Source: Escherichia phage vB_EcoP-22664UKE3-2
Length of the DNA: 40,482 bases
Direction: 5' to 3' (one strand)
Sequence record: MZ234011.1
Position numbers and translations under genes: made by a program. Positions within the stretch are counted from its first letter, which is position 1; each line of letters starts with the position of its first letter. The notes beneath the pieces were generated by a model. That model saw only the letters and a list, made by a program, of their open reading frames with translations, was not told the DNA's origin and made no database searches. Of this stretch, positions 7,083 through 40,482 are shown one piece after another.

Positions 7083-7519
7083 TGCTCAGTGATTCGTATT
7101 TCTATGATGAGTCCAGTAAGTCTGGCCTGAAGTCCCTGCGTTCTGGTAAGGATGTGGGGTGTGTGGGAAACCACGGGTATTATCAGGTAGGAACTCGACG
7201 TCATGGACTCCTGCTGGCCCATAGAGTCGTCTGGGAGCTAACCAACGGTCCTATACCAGAAGGGATGGAGATTGACCATATCGACCGCTGCCGGACTAAC
7301 AACAGGCTGGACAACCTCCGGCTAGTTACTTCAAGCGAGAACTCCTGCAACACCTCAGGACATTCTGACTCAAAGACTGGAGTTAAGAACATATCGTTCC
7401 ATCAGAATGGCTACGCTATCGAGGTCATGCGTAAGGGGGTCCGTATGCGAACAACACGTCCTACTTTAGAGGAGGCTATCTCTGTCCGGGACCTAATGCT
7501 GGAGGGACTCTATGTCTAA
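7079..7519 (+). CDS. HNH homing endonuclease
   Basis: [56 protein letters not shown] is a typical HNH motif; sits between Rz and large terminase where T7 has no gene; overlaps terminase start. Confidence 0.75.
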
Positions 7520-9278
7520 GAAAACACCTGCTGAAAGACAGGCTGAAATGACCCAAAGGATGAGGGACGACTTCGTGTTCTTCATCTTCGTTCTCTGGAA
7601 AGCGCTGAGCCTTCCGGTTCCAACCAGATGTCAGATAGATATGTGTAAGAAGCTGGCTGCTGGCGATAACCGACGCTTCATCCTTCAGGCGTTCCGAGGT
7701 ATTGGCAAATCGTTTCTGACCTGTGGTTTCGTGGTCTGGAAGCTATGGAACAACCCAGACTTGAAGTTCATGATTGTGTCGGCCTCAAAGGAACGAGCCG
7801 ATGCAAACTCCATCTTTATCAAGCGAATCATCGACCTCATGCCTCAGCTTCAGGAACTCAAACCTAAGCAGGGACAGCGAGATGCTGTTATCAGCTTCGA
7901 CGTTGGGCCAGCCAAGCCTGACCACTCACCTTCTGTTAAGTCAGTTGGTATCACTGGTCAGTTGACTGGTAGTCGTGCTGACATACTGATTGCCGATGAC
8001 GTGGAGGTTCCGAACAACTCAGCGACTCAGGCTGCACGAGACCGTCTGTCAGAGCTTGTGAAAGAGTTTGACGCTATCCTGAAGCCGGGAGGTACGATCA
8101 TCTATCTGGGTACTCCTCAGAACGAGATGACCCTGTACCGTGAGCTGGAAGGTCGTGGGTACATCACTACTATCTGGCCCGCTCGTTATCCACGCGATAA
8201 GAAGGACTGGCAGTCTTACGGCGACCGTCTTGCACCGATGCTTCAGGCAGAGCTTGAAGAGGACCCTGAGGCCTTCTACTGGCGTCCGACCGATGAAGTT
8301 CGATTCGACGATACTGACCTGAAGGAACGTGAGCTGTCCTACGGTAAAGCTGGCTTCGCTCTACAGTTCATGCTTAACCCTAACCTGAGTGATGCCGAGA
8401 AGTATCCTCTGAAGCTCCGTGACCTTATCGTAGCAGACTTGGACCCAGCGTCCAGCCCAATGGTCTACCAATGGTTACCGAACCCTCAGAACAAGCGTGA
8501 GGACGTTCCTAACGTTGGACTCATGGGTGACTCGTACCACACGTATCAGACTGTAGGTTCTGCCTTCAGTTCGTACACCCAGAAGATTCTGGTCATAGAC
8601 CCTAGTGGTCGTGGTAAGGATGAAACTGGCTATGCGGTACTATACCAGCTCAACGGCTACATCTTCGCTATGGAAGTTGGTGGCATGCGTGGTGGTTATG
8701 AAGACTCTACGCTGGAAGCCTTGGCTAAGATTGGTCGTAAGTGGAGGGTCAACGAATACGTCATTGAGGGTAACTTCGGTGATGGTATGTACCTTGAGCT
8801 ATTCAAGCCTGTAGCGGCCCGTATCCATCCTGCGGCTGTAACTGAAGTGAAGAGTAAGGGTCAGAAAGAACTACGCATCTGTGACGTTCTGGAGCCTATC
8901 ATGGGGTCTCACAGACTTATCGTTAACGCTGCTGCTATCGTCCAAGACTACCAGACAGCCTCTGACAAGGATGGTGTTCGTAATCCTATCTACTCTCTAT
9001 TCTATCAGATGACACGTATCTCTCGTGAGCGTGGAGCCTTGGCACACGATGACCGACTTGATGCGCTGGCTATCGGTGTACAGTTCTTCGTTGAGTCGAT
9101 GGCTAAGGATGCCAACAAAGGCGAACGTGAAGTCACTGAGGAATGGCTGGAGGAACAGATGGAGAACCCACGGAAAGGCTTCGAGTCCATCCACACTGAG
9201 TTCTGGGACAATGGGGTCCGGGTAACTCACGATACGGACGACGAGCTTGGACTAGGGTCATACGTTACGTTCCACTAG
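7512..9278 (+). CDS. Terminase large subunit (T7 gp19-like)
   Basis: 588 aa, same size and position as T7 gp19; Walker A-like GIGKSF motif near the N-terminus. Confidence 0.95.
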
Positions 9279-9287
9279 CTGAATGAA

Positions 9288-9336
9288 TAACTATAGGCGA
9301 AAACTGAATTAATACGCGGTTAGTAACCTATAGTTA
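9288..9336 (+). promoter_or_regulatory. Inverted repeat TAACTATAGG ... CCTATAGTTA (10-bp arms, 29-nt spacer) downstream of terminase
   Basis: Arms are exact reverse complements; lies in the non-coding right-end region. Confidence 0.5.
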
Positions 9337-9372
9337 CTACCAGTCTAACCTACTGTTTTACAAGGAGTTTGG

Positions 9373-9395
9373 ACTTAACTATCACTATAGGGAAG
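9373..9395 (+). promoter_or_regulatory. Phage RNAP promoter (CTTAACTATCACTATAGGGAAGA), phiOR-like position after gene 19
   Basis: Full match to the promoter core; position corresponds to T7 phiOR. Confidence 0.6.
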
Positions 9396-9573
9396 ACCCC
9401 CGGTTACTTATAGTATTACTGTAGTGAATATACATATGCAGACTTTATGCAAGACCTTAGGAGGCAGACTCCGAGTTCTTACCTAAGGCTTGCACCGATG
9501 GAAGGAGGTGATATTAATCATAATCCCTCCAATACAGATAGTCACCGACCATAGATACAGGAGGTATGTAGCA

Positions 9574-9747
9574 TATGGCAAAGACCAAAGCTGTACTTAA
9601 AGCTCTGGCGACCAATCGAGCTACATACAGGTTTCTTGCTGCTGTTCTACTTGCTGCTGGCGTTACTGCTGGAAGTCAGTGGGTCGGGTGGGTCGGGTGG
9701 GTCGGGTGGGTCGAGACTCTCGTATGTACTCTGGTCTCTCAGTGTAA
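9574..9747 (+). CDS. Small Cys-rich ORF (57 aa) containing an in-frame tandem repeat (VGR x4); possible gene 19.5 analogue
   Basis: Manual translation MAKTKAVLKSSGDQSSYIQVSCCCSTCCWRYCWKSVGRVGRVGRVGRDSRMYSGLSV; RBS CAGGAGG about 10 nt upstream. May be non-coding. Confidence 0.25.
9681..9713 (+). repeat. Tandem repeat, 9-bp unit GGGTCGGGT x ~3.7
   Basis: Directly visible: gggtcgggtgggtcgggtgggtcgggtgggtcg. Confidence 0.85.
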
Positions 9748-9980
9748 TTAACGCAATCATGGTAACGATTCATGAGCGGAAGACCTAAGGTCAGTACGTG
9801 GATAAAGACTCACTCTACTGACCTTAGCTACTGTAGTCAAGGACTTTAGGTAACACCTTAAGAGAAGCTCACTTAGGGTCATCCTACTTATTGGTCTATC
9901 CTAGTGTCGCCTGACCTACGGTCCTTGACCTACAGTGGCTGTGGTCTACAGTAGTGACGATGAGTTTTGGACCAAAAGTT

Positions 9981-10180
9981 TGAGACCACATCTCACAGTT
10001 CAAGAACTTCAAGTCTCCCCCATAGGCCTCTTTCAGTCCAGACCAAAGGCCCTACCCCAGTCTATCATAAGGTTGGACCGATGGTCAAGACTTCAGGTCA
10101 ACGATAGGTTGTGGCTATGGCTTAGGGAAGGACGATAGGTTGGGACTATGGGTCTGTCTTTGAGTCTCTATCTGTATCAG
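9981..10180 (+). repeat. Putative genome left end / terminal-repeat region (approximate boundaries)
   Basis: TCTCACAGT...TCTCCCCCATAGG resembles the T7 left-terminal sequence as I recall it; lies between the phiOR-like promoter and the host-promoter cluster. Confidence 0.35.
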
Positions 10181-10193
10181 ACCTTGAGTCACT

Positions 10194-10257
10194 ACCTACA
10201 GTCTAACTACCTACAGTCATCGACCATCGGTAATGCCGCTACCTACAGTCATCGACC
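10194..10257 (+). repeat. Short direct repeats ACCTACAGTC(ATCGACC) x3, analogous to the T7 end-proximal short repeat arrays
   Basis: ACCTACAGTC at 10194, 10209 and 10241; the last two extend to the 17-mer ACCTACAGTCATCGACC. Confidence 0.6.
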
Positions 10258-10376
10258 TACGGTTAATAGACACAAGGATATAGACTTAAGGTCTAATACA
10301 TGTTAGTCAAAGACTATATCCTCTTAGTCACTATGGGGCCGACGATAGCTTAATCAATATTATTTAAGATTACCTA

Positions 10377-10412
10377 TTGACTACAGGTCCAGACTATGGC
10401 TTAATATCTTCC
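10377..10412 (+). promoter_or_regulatory. Candidate host sigma70 early promoter (A1-like): TTGACT -35 with weak -10
   Basis: TTGACT at 10377-10382; a CTTAAT/TAATAT-like -10 follows at 17-19 nt; position matches the T7 A1-A3 cluster. Confidence 0.35.
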
Positions 10413-10517
10413 GTCAACACGACACGGCAACAACCGGATAGTGAAGACGCCGGGTCATCCCGGTTAAGTAGACAGCCTGATAAGTCATACGAACAACAGG
10501 CAGATGACAGAAAGTAG

Positions 10518-10547
10518 TTGACAAGATGTACCGACTTAAAGTAGTAT
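10518..10547 (+). promoter_or_regulatory. Host sigma70 early promoter (A3-like): TTGACA - 18 nt - TAGTAT
   Basis: TTGACAAGATGTACCGACTTAAAGTAGTATGTACCACATC closely parallels T7 A3 as I recall it, including the GTACCACAT start region. Confidence 0.5.
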
Positions 10548-10660
10548 GTACCACATCAACACGAAACAACGGTGACGACCAACACTGAAACGGTCTACCT
10601 GAAGTCCTCTGACTGAAGGGAATGCTCTTTAACAATCTGGATAAACTCTTAATGTGCGCC

Positions 10661-10723
10661 GACAGTGATTAACTACAGGGTCTTTGAGTCTACATCTGAA
10701 GGCCCTGACTGATAGTCACTAAC
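10661..10723 (+). promoter_or_regulatory. Repeated hairpin element, family 1 copy A (putative RNase III site before first early gene)
   Basis: AGTGATTAACTACAGG...CCTGACTGATAGTCACTAAC; imperfect inverted repeat; nearly identical to copy D at 12156. Confidence 0.5.
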
Positions 10724-10730
10724 TTAACGG

Positions 10731-10985
10731 ATGGACACTATGAAACACTTAAGCACAATCACTAATCGCAATGAAGTATTCGTGAACACTAAAGGTTATG
10801 CGTGGATTCAGCTTAAAGAGATGAGAGGAGCGCGTCACCGTGTGGTAGTTCGCAAGGTATCAAGCAAGCCGTTCAGCAACTACAGCGTAGATACTATGCG
10901 TATAGACAACGAGACTTACCTGATAGACTCGCAGATAACCGTGCGTCCTACAGCGGGCATCTCAGCTCCTTATTTCGCTAACTGA
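10731..10985 (+). CDS. Hypothetical early protein (84 aa, basic)
   Basis: ORF with RBS-like GGATGGA upstream; first gene after the host promoters; bracketed by family-1 hairpins; no similarity I can recognise. Confidence 0.6.
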   Translation: MDTMKHLSTITNRNEVFVNTKGYAWIQLKEMRGARHRVVVRKVSSKPFSNYSVDTMRIDNETYLIDSQITVRPTAGISAPYFAN

Positions 10986-11040
10986 GAGTGATTAACTACA
11001 GGTCGTTAGACTGATAGCGGCCTGACTGATAGTCACTAGC
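10985..11040 (+). promoter_or_regulatory. Repeated hairpin element, family 1 copy B (putative RNase III site)
   Basis: Same outer arms as copy A with inner variant GTCGTTAGACTGATAGCGGCC; near-identical to copy C. Confidence 0.5.
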
Positions 11041-11058
11041 AACCTAAGAGGATTCATT

Positions 11059-11337
11059 ATGAGACTGAACAAAGCTACAGCAGAAGCCTTTCGCAAGGAG
11101 CTTGAATCAAGATTATTGTGTGGAGTGGCGGAAGGAGCCGCTCGATATAAAGAGAATGGTCTAACGTTCAAGCGCTTTATGTGGGATTGCTATCACGGAG
11201 TGGGCCATAAAAAGTCGCAGGAAATAATCACCAGCAACAATGCGGAAGTGCAAGTGATAGGAGGATACATGGCTAACGTGAAGGATTCACACATAGAGAC
11301 AATGCTTAAGAATGCACTTAAAGATGTAGCCTACTAG
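11059..11337 (+). CDS. Hypothetical early protein (92 aa)
   Basis: ORF with RBS AAGAGGA upstream; between hairpin copies B and C; no recognisable similarity. Confidence 0.6.
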   Translation: MRLNKATAEAFRKELESRLLCGVAEGAARYKENGLTFKRFMWDCYHGVGHKKSQEIITSNNAEVQVIGGYMANVKDSHIETMLKNALKDVAY

Positions 11338-11388
11338 TGATTAACTACAGGTCGTTAGACTGATAGCGGCCTGACTGATAGTCACTAA
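11333..11388 (+). promoter_or_regulatory. Repeated hairpin element, family 1 copy C (putative RNase III site before ocr)
   Basis: Near-identical to copy B. Confidence 0.5.
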
Positions 11389-13206: not shown

Positions 13207-13211
13207 TTATG

Positions 13212-13234
13212 ACTTAACTATCACTATAGGACTC
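13212..13234 (+). promoter_or_regulatory. Phage RNAP promoter immediately upstream of the RNAP gene (CTTAACTATCACTATAGGACTC)
   Basis: Full promoter core 70 nt upstream of the gene 1 start. Confidence 0.6.
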
Positions 13235-13303: not shown

Positions 13304-15985
13304 ATGAGCGTCATCTCTATTGACAAACACGACTTCTCTGATGTGTCGAACGCCATTGAGCCGTTTAACCTGCTGGCTGACCACTACGGGCAAGACCTTG
13401 CAGTCAAACAGCTTCAGCTTGAGCATGAGGCCTACACTGAAGGTGAGCGACGTTTCATCAAGAACCTTGAGCGTCAGACCGAGCGAGGGGAACTGGCAGA
13501 CAATCAGGTCGCCAAGCCTTTGATGCAGACTCTGGTTCCTAAGATTGCGCAAGCCGTCAAGGAGTGGCACGAAGGTCCAGACGGGAAGCTGTCAACCTCA
13601 CGTCCGAGCGTAGCGTTCACCATGTTAAGCACTGAAGAGAAGGCCGTCAAGGACCGCTCTCTTCGCATCTCCTGCGAGTCTGCTGCGGTTATCATACTGA
13701 AGGTCATCCTCTCCAAGCTGGTCAAGCCTGAAGGTATACCGATTACACCGATGGCCTCCGCGATAGGTCGCACACTTGAGGATGAAATCCGATTCGGTCG
13801 CATTCGTGACAAGGAGAAGGAGCACTTCAAGAAGGCGATAGCTGATAACCTGAACAAGAGAGCCGGGGCATCATACAAGAAAGCCTACATGCAAGCGGTC
13901 GAGACATCCATGCTGGAGCAAGGCCAACTAGAAGATGCGTGGGGAACTTGGAGTCCGACCGAGGCTGTCCACGTTGGAATCAAGATGCTGGAGATTGTCA
14001 TACAGTCAACACAACTGGTCGAGCTTAAGCGTTACGGTGCTGGCAATGCAGCGGCTGACGTTGAGATGGTCCACCTGTCAGACTTCTGGGTCAAGAAGAT
14101 GGCACAACGAGGATTCAGCCTTGCGGGTATCGCCCCAGTCTACCAGCCTTGCGTCGTTCCGCCTAAGCCGTGGACTGGTGTCGTAGGCGGTGGGTATTGG
14201 GCCAAAGGTCGAAGACCATTGCCACTGATTCGCTTAGGGTCTAAGTCTGCGGTAGCACGTTATGAAGACGTATACATGCCTGAAGTCTATGAAGCTGTGA
14301 ATATCATCCAGAATACACCTTGGAAAGTGAACAAGAAGGTATTGGACGTGGTGAACAGGGTCGAGAAGCTGAACAACACGCCTATTAATGACATCCCTCA
14401 GATGGAACCGCTGAAGCCTGAGGACTATGCTGGTGAAACCGAGGAGGAACTCAAGGCATGGAAGAAGGCTGCTGCTGGTATCTATCGCCGCGAGAAGGCC
14501 AGACAGTCACGCAGATTATCACTGAGCTTTATCGTTAACCAAGCAAACAAGTTCTCTCAGTTCAAGGCCATCTGGTTCCCGTACAACATGGATTGGCGAG
14601 GTCGTGTCTACGCTGTCCCGATGTTCAACCCTCAGGGTAACGACATGCAGAAGGGGCTCCTGACTCTGGCAGTCGGCAAGCCTATTGGTGCTGACGGTTT
14701 CAAATGGCTGAAGGTCCACGGTGCAAACTGTGCGGGTGTCGATAAAGTCACCTTCGATGAGCGCATCAAGTGGGTGGAAGACAACCACGAAAACATCATG
14801 GCTGCTGCTAAGGCACCGATGGATAGCATTGAGTGGTGGGGCAAGTTAGACTCTCCGTTCTGCTTCCTAGCGTTCTGCTTCGAGTATGCTGGCGTAATGC
14901 ACCACGGCTTGTCTTACTCCTGCTCGCTGCCGATAGCGTTCGATGGGTCCTGCTCTGGGATTCAGCACTTCAGCGCTATGCTTCGCGACCACATCGGTGG
15001 ACATGCAGTAAACCTGACGCCATCCGGTAAGGTCCAAGACATCTACCGCATCGTGTCTGACCGCATTGAGGAGGAGCTTAAAGTCCTACTGGTTAACGGT
15101 ACGGACAACGAGATGGTAACTCACGAGGACAAGAAAACTGGTGAGATTACCGAGCGTCTCAAGCTGGGGACACGAGAGCTTGCCCGTCAGTGGCTGACCT
15201 ACGGTATGTCACGAAAGGTCACTAAGCGTTCGGTCATGACTCTGGCCTACGGGTCGAAAGAGTACGGCTTCGCAGGCCAAGTTTACGAGGACATCGTGAT
15301 GCCAGCGATTGACTCAGGGTCTGGCGCTATGTTCACTGAACCAAGCCAAGCATCTCGCTTCATGGCTAAGATGATTTGGGAAGCTGTGAGTGTGACCGTA
15401 GTTGCTGCGGTTGACGCGATGAAATGGCTTCAGGGTGCTGCCAAGCTGCTTGCTGCTGAAGTGAAGGACAAGAAGACTGGAGAAATCCTGAAGCCTTGTC
15501 TTCCGGTACACTGGGTCACACCTGATGGTTTCCCTGTCTGGCAGGAATACCGAAAGAAGGACACCACTCGTCTGAACCTGATGTTCTTAGGGTCATTCAA
15601 CCTTCAGCCTACCGTCAACAAAGGCACGAAGAAAGAGCTGGACAAGCACAAGCAGGAGTCAGGCATTAGCCCGAACTTCGTCCACTCACAAGATGGTAGC
15701 CACCTCCGCAAGACTGTAGTCCACACGCACCGCAAATATGGCGTGATGTCATTCGCAGTGATTCACGATAGCTTCGGGACCATCCCGGCTGACGCTGAGT
15801 ATCTGTTCCGTGGAGTCCGTGAGACGATGGTCGAGACCTACCGCGACAACGATGTGCTGCTTGACTTCTACGAGCAGTTTGAATACCAGCTTCACGAGAG
15901 CCAGAGAGACAAGTTGCCTGAGCTTCCTAAGAAAGGTAAACTGAATATCGAAGACATCTTGTCTTCAGACTTTGCATTCGCTTAA
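13304..15985 (+). CDS. 1: DNA-directed RNA polymerase, single-subunit (T7 gp1-like)
   Basis: 893 aa; N-terminus DKHDFSDVSNAIEPFNLLADHYG...LEHEAYTEGERRF...ADNQVAKPL parallels T7 RNAP; C-terminal FAFA like T7. Confidence 0.97.
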   Translation: MSVISIDKHDFSDVSNAIEPFNLLADHYGQDLAVKQLQLEHEAYTEGERRFIKNLERQTERGELADNQVAKPLMQTLVPKIAQAVKEWHEGPDGKLSTSRPSVAFTMLSTEEKAVKDRSLRISCESAAVIILKVILSKLVKPEGIPITPMASAIGRTLEDEIRFGRIRDKEKEHFKKAIADNLNKRAGASYKKAYMQAVETSMLEQGQLEDAWGTWSPTEAVHVGIKMLEIVIQSTQLVELKRYGAGNAAADVEMVHLSDFWVKKMAQRGFSLAGIAPVYQPCVVPPKPWTGVVGGGYWAKGRRPLPLIRLGSKSAVARYEDVYMPEVYEAVNIIQNTPWKVNKKVLDVVNRVEKLNNTPINDIPQMEPLKPEDYAGETEEELKAWKKAAAGIYRREKARQSRRLSLSFIVNQANKFSQFKAIWFPYNMDWRGRVYAVPMFNPQGNDMQKGLLTLAVGKPIGADGFKWLKVHGANCAGVDKVTFDERIKWVEDNHENIMAAAKAPMDSIEWWGKLDSPFCFLAFCFEYAGVMHHGLSYSCSLPIAFDGSCSGIQHFSAMLRDHIGGHAVNLTPSGKVQDIYRIVSDRIEEELKVLLVNGTDNEMVTHEDKKTGEITERLKLGTRELARQWLTYGMSRKVTKRSVMTLAYGSKEYGFAGQVYEDIVMPAIDSGSGAMFTEPSQASRFMAKMIWEAVSVTVVAAVDAMKWLQGAAKLLAAEVKDKKTGEILKPCLPVHWVTPDGFPVWQEYRKKDTTRLNLMFLGSFNLQPTVNKGTKKELDKHKQESGISPNFVHSQDGSHLRKTVVHTHRKYGVMSFAVIHDSFGTIPADAEYLFRGVRETMVETYRDNDVLLDFYEQFEYQLHESQRDKLPELPKKGKLNIEDILSSDFAFA

Positions 15986-39466: not shown

Positions 39467-39916
39467 ATGAAGAACGGGACAGCCAGTGAGAGACTGGCAG
39501 AACTGTCAGTAGCTGAAGAGTCTGGCTGTATCCGATTCACAGGCCACTTAGACGGAGAAGGATACGGAAGGATAATGGTGGCTAGGGTTAAGTATATGGC
39601 ACATCGTCTCTCCTACTCCATAAATAAGGGGCCAATACCAGATGGCTATGTTGTTAGGCATAAATGTGATAATCCATCATGCATAAATCCTGAACACCTT
39701 GAAGTAGGAACGCAGGCTGACAACATTGCAGATAAGGTATCCAGAGGCCGACAGGCAAGAGGTAGTGGAGCAGGCAGAGCTATACTGACAGAGGAATCTG
39801 TTAGGGAAATACGCTCCAGTCCATTAAAAGTATCTGAGCTTTCCACCTTATACGGGGTAAGCGTCGTTTCCATACGAAATATATTGAGGAGAAAGACATG
39901 GCAACACGTGGCGTAA
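39467..39916 (+). CDS. HNH homing endonuclease inserted between gp15 and gp16
   Basis: GCIRFTGHLDGEGYGRIMVARVKYMAHRLSYSINKGPIPDGYVVRHKCDNPSCINPEHLEVGTQADN is a classical HNH motif; overlaps the gp16 start by 19 nt. Confidence 0.8.
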   Translation: MKNGTASERLAELSVAEESGCIRFTGHLDGEGYGRIMVARVKYMAHRLSYSINKGPIPDGYVVRHKCDNPSCINPEHLEVGTQADNIADKVSRGRQARGSGAGRAILTEESVREIRSSPLKVSELSTLYGVSVVSIRNILRRKTWQHVA

Positions 39917-40482
39917 GGAACGCAAATCCGGGCAATATCCGTAAGTCCAAAGACCAGTGGGAAGGTGCTATAGGCGATGATGGTGCATTCGTTATCTTCG
40001 ACAGTCCTGAATCTGGGGTCCGAGCATTAGCGAAAAACCTTCAAAGCTACGGTCGCCAAGGTTATGACTCTATCGAGAAGATTATCAACAGATGGGCACC
40101 TCCGAGCGAGAACGACACTCAGTCCTACATCGACTCGGTTGTATCTGCTACTGGTATTCCTGCAACTCAAAGTCTCGACCTATCTGACCCTGACACCCTG
40201 TCTTCTCTGGCACAAGCTATCAGCTTCCATGAGACAGGCTCACGGTACGACCCTGAAGTCTATCAGAAGGGAGTCGCACGGGCACTCAACGGCATTAGCC
40301 CAAAGACTCCACCAGTAAGCGCTAACGTATTTGACGCACTCACGGAAGGACTCAAGTCTAAACCTAAAGTAGCTCTGGGTGAGAACCTTCCGACCGCTGC
40401 TGGTCTTAACATTGAGGGTCAAGCACCTGAAGCTCCCAACGAATCGTTCGGTGAGATGTTCTATAAGTCTACTGGCGAGACC
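39898..40482 (+). CDS. Internal virion protein D (gp16), N-terminal 195 aa; continues in frame at window position 1
   Basis: ORF runs off the window end with no stop; its last residues (...FGEMFYKSTGET) and the first residues of the window (MQEREERSTWFGF...) are contiguous relative to T7 gp16 (...WETHGETLDEYNSRSTFFGF). Confidence 0.85.
   Translation, partial: MATRGVRNANPGNIRKSKDQWEGAIGDDGAFVIFDSPESGVRALAKNLQSYGRQGYDSIEKIINRWAPPSENDTQSYIDSVVSATGIPATQSLDLSDPDTLSSLAQAISFHETGSRYDPEVYQKGVARALNGISPKTPPVSANVFDALTEGLKSKPKVALGENLPTAAGLNIEGQAPEAPNESFGEMFYKSTGET

Follow-up and report, generated by a model that had tools for sequence, protein, structure and literature searches.

The region 9279–10730 of the record MZ234011.1 (Escherichia phage vB_EcoP-22664UKE3-2; the whole stretch of 40,482 nucleotides analysed here is called the window) is very probably the concatemer junction of a K1F-like phage, where the assembler circularised a linear genome and merged the terminal repeats of both its ends into a single copy. 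Comparison with relatives supports placing the physical ends and the collapsed 179-bp repeat at 9991–10169. The features are as follows (here and below a slash marks a boundary):

9991..10169, plus strand: predicted terminal repeat, 179 bp, one collapsed copy, by homology to the repeats of relatives
9991 and 10169: predicted left and right genome ends, with boundaries A/TCTCACAGT and ...GAGTCTCT/ATCTGT, respectively

The region matches 387 phage records, the best of them at 95.9% over the full length, and nearly all matching records are K1F-like phages of the genus Kayfunavirus in the T7 family. The nucleotide identity between Kayfunavirus records and four sampled segments of the window is 92–100%, and by this similarity the phage is assigned to Kayfunavirus (K1F-like, T7 family). 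The ORF at 13304–15985 (893 aa) aligns where the relatives have an annotated RNA polymerase gene.

The last 600 and the first 600 bases of the window, when joined, are colinear with gene 16 of PH1061, with no gaps over 1199 bases. The 195-codon ORF at 39898–40482 has no stop codon, and its reading frame resumes at base 1. Since the gene 16 alignment is gapless and the ORF continues in frame across the boundary, the window represents a circularly permuted, closed genome, opened within gene 16 and cut in frame, and its edges are not physical ends. This agrees with the first-pass annotation, which had placed the genome ends inside the window rather than at its boundaries.

The repeat 9991–10169 occurs once in the window, as is expected of an assembly in which both terminal copies were collapsed (PMC5000459). 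It starts with TCTCACAGT at 9991, and its first bases are the same in T7, K1F, SH3, SH4, Peacock and EPr2. The stretch TCTCACAGT...CCCCCATAGG, noted earlier for its resemblance to the T7 left terminus, does coincide with T7 positions 1–35 at 28 of 35 positions, the first 9 bases included, barring one extra base. At the right end, ...GAGTCTCT directly precedes ATCTGT, and the same end is seen in T7, T3 and several relatives with determined ends. The identity to the repeats of relatives is 96.1% for Peacock, 93.3% for K1F, 89.6% for EPr2, 86.3% for SH3, 77.3% for SH4 and 60.4% for T7. Both boundaries are common to the window, T7 and the records ending exactly there. The limits 9991 and 10169, and hence the length of 179 bp, follow from applying to the window the boundary rule that the repeat extends from TCTCACAG to the base before ATCTGT. 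The initial proposal of a collapsed repeat around 9981–10180 thus pointed to the right region, while its exact limits were about 10 bp off on each side. The recognition of a T7-type concatemer junction stands, as the repeat is homologous to defined terminal repeats and both its boundaries match those of T7.

The ends of several relatives are known by other means. The ends of the Citrobacter phages SH3, SH4 and SH5 (also Kayfunaviruses) were determined by run-off Sanger sequencing of virion DNA, yielding repeats of 183, 190 and 190 bp (PMC4925675), and the SH3 and SH4 records begin at the base equivalent to window position 9991. So does the Peacock record (MK903279), in which positions 1–179 are annotated as a PhageTerm-predicted repeat, and the annotated 179-bp repeat of EPr2 has the same start base. 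In the K1F record (NC_007456), both ends consist of an exact 178-bp repeat, beginning with TCTCACAGTT and ending with ...GAGTCTC; the K1F repeat is quoted as 179 bp (Scholl & Merril 2005, as cited in PMC4925675). The boundary rule yields 160 bp for T7 and 190 bp for a 40,387-bp contig, the latter equal to the 190-bp repeat derived from read starts in the 40,387-bp phage IME-SF2 (PMC3896407). The read-start termini of T3 obey the same rule (PMC3896407).

At the right end the deposited relatives vary by 1–5 bp, the repeat being 178 bp in the K1F record and 184 bp in SH3. It is conceivable, if unlikely, that our phage shares the left end, but has its right end shifted by a few bases (to 10168 or 10173–10174, for instance), or by more owing to a lineage-specific change. 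This would be in line with the shorter K1F repeat, with the annotated SH3 repeat that ends with ...GAGTCTCTATCT, and with three contigs (L021, L024 and L037) that end at other positions. However, the repeats of T7, SH4, Peacock and EPr2 all end with ...CT right before ATCTGT, five database contigs stop at the equivalent of 10169, and the published lengths for K1F (179 bp) and SH4 (190 bp) fit the boundary rule (PMC4925675). Moreover, run-off sequencing, in which an A is added by the polymerase, leaves an uncertainty that covers a difference of 1 bp (PMC4925675). We retain 10169 as the predicted right end.

The right edge of the repeat coincides with a motif known from T7:

10169..10176, plus strand: T7 class II pause-like signal, TATCTGTA, at the right edge of the repeat

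The class II pause motif consists of a strictly conserved ATCTGTT with A, C or T in front of it (10.64898/2026.02.12.705533). The T7 junction contains the only natural class II pause/termination signal for T7 RNA polymerase (10.64898/2026.02.12.705533), and pausing of the polymerase there starts packaging (10.64898/2026.02.12.705533, PMC3276506). Near the genome ends of T7, the only positions that proved essential are those of the insertions at 142 and 162, next to where the repeat ends on the right (PMC11482910). The sequence (C/T)ATCTGT at the right boundary is retained in all twelve aligned relatives and in T7; the window has ATCTGTA, matching ATCTGTT of T7 at 6 of 7 bases. Class II-like motifs are not enriched in the window (11 found, 8.6 expected), and three copies of ATCTGTT on the plus strand lie within genes. 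Since the count is not above chance, the functional weight of the motif comes only from its conserved position. Pausing of the polymerase at ATCTGTA, suggested by analogy with T7, is a weak and unproven link.

To the left of the repeat we find the genes and the promoter expected from T7:

7512..9278, plus strand: terminase large subunit, gene 19 homologue, 588 aa (phrog_38, E = 4.5e-131)
9373..9395, plus strand: phiOR-like phage RNA polymerase promoter, positions –17 to +6, ACTTAACTATCACTATAGGGAAG, with the +1 G at 9390
9405..9445, unstranded: AT-rich stretch downstream of the promoter, GC content 26.8% vs. 49.8% in the window
9575..9751, plus strand: gp19.5-like small ORF, 58 aa (phrog_2193, E = 1.4e-20)

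Peacock, K1F and Pipis carry the annotation of terminase large subunit for their homologues of the first of these genes. The promoter core CACTATAGGGA at 9383–9393 is one of six matches in the window, with 0.66 expected. A position weight matrix constructed from these matches yields 11 sites, all on the plus strand, and the site at 9370–9393 is among the best, with the score of 35.6. Hence the phiOR-like promoter described earlier between the terminase stop codon and the host promoters is confirmed, with transcription predicted to start at 9390. It lies 112 nt past the terminase stop codon, and T7 phiOR lies 99 nt past the gene 19 stop codon. The promoter followed by the AT-rich stretch has the layout of a T7-type origin, and the origin function may be similar here. 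In T7, phiOR is described as the replication origin needed for plasmid packaging, and a plasmid with the phiOR origin and the concatemer junction as being replicated and packaged (10.1101/2024.04.20.590424, PMC13236587, both with reference to Chung & Hinkle 1990). The gp19.5-like ORF holds a 9-bp tandem repeat at 9679–9713, and its stop codon is 240 bp ahead of the terminal repeat, the same distance as in T7. Overall, the terminase gene, and then the phage promoter and gene 19.5, are all situated to the left of the repeat with the spacing matching that of T7.

An additional element is situated between the terminase gene and the promoter:

9288..9336, plus strand: conserved stem-loop, a 10-bp outer stem and a short inner stem, just 3' of the terminase stop codon

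The 10-bp inverted repeat reported here by the first-pass annotation is present, with arms 9288–9297 and 9327–9336 of 10 nt each, 100% complementary and 29 nt apart. The RNA fold has the energy of –15.8 kcal/mol (z = –3.05 relative to shuffles). In an alignment of 16 relatives, five of the ten outer pairs show two-sided changes (such as AACTATAGG/CCTATAGTT, AACTATGGG/CCCATAGTT and ATACCTACGCA/TGCGTTAGGTAT), and 90.6% of the cells pair; by our reading, two sequences scored as unpaired do pair after a shift by one column. When the partner columns are slid, pairing falls to 18–48%, and the covariation score of the stem is reached by none of 500 shuffles. All one-sided changes produce G·U on the plus strand (and an A·C mismatch on the other strand), which favours an RNA rather than a DNA structure. 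The more distant relatives CR44b, L034, T7 and the T3-like phages have unrelated stem-loops in the same slot.

The Rfam scan of 9000–11200 matched no family at E ≤ 1, and no intrinsic terminator was found in the same interval. A class I terminator was considered and rejected, as no terminator was called and the structure has no U-run. The 5' arm shares TAACTAYAGG with four hairpins of the early region that resemble T7 RNase III sites; having two stems with an internal loop, the structure is by its shape a candidate RNase III site. The stem-loop clearly has a function, although not as a DNA hairpin that forms a genome end. Our best guess is that it serves as an RNA processing or 3'-stabilising hairpin on late transcripts.

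A second inverted repeat is situated between gene 19.5 and the terminal repeat:

9785..9827, unstranded: perfect 12-bp inverted repeat with a 19-nt loop, CTAAGGTCAGTA / TACTGACCTTAG

Its arms (9785–9796 and 9816–9827) are invariant in all Kayfunavirus loci, the loop being variable, and the z-score of the DNA fold is –3.71; with arms invariant within the genus, conservation of the structure and of the sequence are inseparable. The centre of this repeat is 182–195 bp left of the terminal repeat in all loci but one (L018, 155 bp), the distance in the window being 185 bp. T7 has an imperfect palindrome at 39568–39608, centred 189.5 bp left of its repeat, and T3-like contigs have a homologous AGGGAT...ATCCCT pair 206.5 bp left of the repeat. 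Chung, Nardone and Hinkle (1990) reportedly located a hairpin intermediate of T7 some 190 bp to the left of the junction. Of the two inverted repeats, 9785–9827 has the corresponding position, between gene 19.5 and the terminal repeat, and 9288–9336 does not. By analogy with T7, 9785–9827 is the best candidate for a T7-type hairpin or nick site used in duplication of the terminal repeat, and it should be treated as a lead.

The arms of the hairpin repeat differ among the K1F-like, T7 and T3-like groups. It is possible, although we consider it only tentatively, that two elements are conserved across T7-, T3- and K1F-like phages despite differing sequences, namely, a hairpin-forming repeat left of the terminal repeat and a covarying RNA stem-loop between terminase and phiOR. 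If so, the near-fixed hairpin distance would provide comparative support for the old, never settled model of hairpin-primed duplication of the repeat.

These observations bear on the claim that the inverted repeat 9288–9336 is a DNA hairpin forming the right genome end. In favour of this claim, the perfect 10-bp inverted repeat lies in non-coding DNA of the right-end region, and the processing of T7 concatemers is reported to involve a hairpin-ended intermediate (PMC4281155, with reference to the T7 packaging papers of Chung and Hinkle). However, 9288–9336 directly follows the terminase stop codon, upstream of phiOR and 655–703 bp left of the terminal repeat, its one-sided substitutions provide an RNA signal, and the positional counterpart of the T7 palindrome is 9785–9827. 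Hence this role of 9288–9336, assigned by the first-pass annotation, is very improbable and has to be abandoned. Headful packaging of a permuted genome, or ends at some other place with the likeness to the T7 terminus being merely inherited sequence, has an almost negligible chance: while the ends here are placed by homology and many deposited relatives are permuted records, the terminase is of the T7 type, relatives with 77–96% identical repeats have fixed ends at this place by three independent methods, namely, run-off sequencing, PhageTerm and read-start frequencies (PMC4925675, PMC3896407), and both boundary sequences are conserved as far as T7.

For the T7-type junction with the repeat at 9991–10169, the following sequence of events may be proposed. 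The DNA in the virion would begin at 9991 and extend rightwards round the circle as far as 10169, with 9991–10169 present at both ends and a genome length of about 40,482 + 179 = 40,661 bp. Replication would produce head-to-tail concatemers with one repeat copy shared between adjacent genomes. The phage RNA polymerase, having initiated at the phiOR-like promoter (+1 at 9390) or at late promoters further upstream, would transcribe across the repeat and, as in T7, might pause at TATCTGT on its right edge and recruit the terminase–prohead complex. As judged from the relatives, the cuts would be made at A/TCTCACAG (between 9990 and 9991) and at GAGTCTCT/ATCTGT (between 10169 and 10170), the chemistry of cutting being modelled on T7. 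The repeat would be duplicated, again as in relatives, through local synthesis of DNA, for which the inverted repeat 9785–9827, about 185 bp to the left, is the probable priming site. The stem-loop 9288–9336 is a separate element, most probably an RNA structure where the terminase message ends.

Short repeats and a conserved block are observed around the terminal repeat:

9915..9936, plus strand: left-flank short repeats CCTACGG and CCTACAG, two copies, looser heptamer pattern
9960..9990, unstranded: conserved block abutting the left-end cut, ATGAGTTTTGGACCAAAAGTTTGAGACCACA, a candidate terminase recognition sequence
10195..10263, plus strand: right-flank array of five CCTACAG-type heptamers spaced by 14–18 bp, looser heptamer pattern

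The motif ACCTACAGT, with at most one mismatch, occurs 39 times in the window, with 11.7 expected. Six plus-strand copies flank the repeat, two on the left (9914 and 9928) and four on the right (10194, 10209, 10241 and 10255), and none is inside 9991–10169. At the window-wide rate, about 0.17 heptamers would be expected in 70 bp, compared to the five seen in the right array; in relatives this array has 3–9 copies. Thus, the short direct-repeat arrays noted previously are indeed seen, as heptamers on both sides of 9991–10169. The left-flank repeats correspond to the T7 short repeat array on the right-end side of its repeat, and the right-flank array corresponds to the one just right of the T7 left terminal repeat.

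The conservation of the block 9960–9990 is 0.89 across 12 relatives, some of which are only about 50% identical overall, and T7 and T3-like sequences have ACCA..AAAA.T.TGA at the same place. An 8-bp inverted repeat near the left cut (9940–9947 and 9983–9990) is matched at only 7 of 8 positions in K1F, and other pairings replace it in some relatives. On both counts it was rejected as a defined element. One more repeat family, with copies at 10156–10174 and 10680–10698, was set aside as a coincidence, the second copy being situated within a hairpin similar to an RNase III site.

To the right there are two host promoters:

10377..10405, plus strand: host promoter homologous to T7 A1 (TTGACT, 17 nt, CTTAAT; aligns with T7 A1)
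10518..10547, plus strand: T7 A3-like host promoter (TTGACA, 18 nt, TAGTAT; aligns with T7 A3)

The A3-like promoter matches the consensus at 10 of 12 positions. The A1-like promoter was not called by the consensus scan; the transcribed sequence downstream of it is conserved. When searching for an equivalent of phiOL, the position weight matrix produced no phage promoter between 9394 and 13208. A partial promoter match at 10328–10343 was discarded as phiOL, as it is not conserved in K1F or Peacock.

The elements follow one another as at the T7 junction: terminase, the phiOR-like promoter with the AT-rich stretch, gene 19.5, short repeats in the non-coding stretch, the terminal repeat, the ATCTGT motif, the heptamer array, and the host promoters. 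Further similarities to T7 are the identical first nine bases of the repeat (TCTCACAGT), the right boundary ...CT/ATCTGT, the palindrome about 185–190 bp left of the repeat, and the heptamer arrays on the flanks of the latter. On the other hand, the T7 repeat is 160 bp, whereas here it is 179 bp and 60% identical; the T7 heptamer is CCTAAAG, in about 12 copies with the period of 13 bp, whereas here it is CCTACAG, in five copies at 14–18 bp; the pause motif is ATCTGTT in T7 and ATCTGTA here; the equivalents of phiOL and A2 are absent here; and the promoter consensus (CTAAACTATCACTATAGGGA) differs from that of T7.

K1F, the type phage of Kayfunavirus, is much closer. Its repeat is 93.3% identical with both boundaries the same, and the post-terminase stem-loop, the promoter, gp19.5 and the inverted repeat of the 9785 type are all the same. 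K1F differs in having one more small ORF, located between gene 19.5 and the inverted repeat, seven right-flank heptamers compared to five here, and two fewer 9-bp copies in gp19.5. The Peacock repeat is also 179 bp (96.1% identical), the start of its record corresponding to 9991, and the SH3–SH5 repeats reach 183–190 bp through internal insertions and deletions (PMC4925675). The layout is that of a textbook T7/K1F concatemer junction, already described, and the differences from T7 are quantitative or typical for the lineage. Only two points are mildly new, both of them comparative: the stem-loop that covaries behind the terminase gene, and the inverted repeat whose position some 185 bp left of the terminal repeat is conserved.

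The analysis is of practical, not conceptual, value: the opening of the record should be moved to 9991, with the 179-bp direct terminal repeat annotated and a predicted length of about 40,661 bp, and the record boundary should no longer divide gene 16. Small "hypothetical protein" ORFs called across the junction in related records warrant scepticism. Several sister records (MZ2340xx) open at the same base as the window.

To the right of the terminal repeat, the interval 10170–10730 of the window contains neither a phiOL-type phage promoter nor, in the alignment with T7, a counterpart of the host promoter A2. T7 has both, and its A2-bearing stretch is aligned opposite a gap in the window. The phage RNA polymerase gene (13304–15985) is preceded, at a distance of 72 nt, by a strong phage-type promoter, with identity of at least 95% at this stretch in more than 150 records. 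Hence the polymerase could transcribe its own gene from this promoter, and in this the window's gene would differ from gene 1 of T7.

Features of the window, by coordinates
39898–40482 and 1–300: two parts of gene 16, whose product is an internal virion protein containing a lytic transglycosylase domain
9679–9713: 9-bp tandem repeat GTGGGTCGG, 3.9 copies, within the gp19.5-like ORF
9935–10138: mechanical ORF, 67 aa, and 10148–10306: mechanical ORF, 52 aa; together they cover parts of the terminal repeat, its right edge included
10664–10719 and 10987–11037: sites with the motif TAACTACAGG, further copies of which are at 11342 and 12167
13209–13232: phage-type promoter CTTAACTATCACTATAGG, matrix score 30.6 (matrix built on the window's own phage promoter matches)

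The motif TAACTACAGG is common to four intergenic sites of the early region. Two of the four were folded, and both yield stable hairpins interrupted by an internal loop (z = −3.2 for the motif at 10670 and −4.5 for the one at 10993), resembling the RNase III processing sites of T7.

To the left of the terminal repeat, the array of 9-bp repeats, encoding the peptide WVGWVGWVGWVE, is an in-frame expansion in the small gp19.5-like protein, which is probably membrane-associated. K1F and Peacock have two copies fewer, and the extra copies of the window are shared by only about one in twelve aligned relatives. Separately, four of the compared loci (L004, that is, K1F, and L028, L035 and L038) have about 90 bp extra between gene 19.5 and the inverted repeat corresponding to that at 9785–9827 in the window. 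This stretch, absent from the window and aligned at about position 9778, contains a small ORF that has a ribosome-binding-like GGAGG in front of it.

Among the deposited records, the terminal-repeat stretch occurs in four to five copies in the loci L008 and L009 (OM256482 EPr2) and in PP328844, because these records carry a duplication of about 500 bp of the junction at either end. The repeats annotated in these records are at 1–179, 501–679, 40583–40761 and 41083–41261, and their multiplicity looks like an artefact of record construction. Sister records annotate up to six "hypothetical proteins" over the non-coding junction; these, as well as the mechanical ORFs, are probably over-calls. In the window, gene 16 is cut by the record boundary, with 195 codons at the end and the remainder continuing in frame from base 1. 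The sister records MZ2340xx start at the identical base, and gene 16 is annotated there only as a truncated portion.
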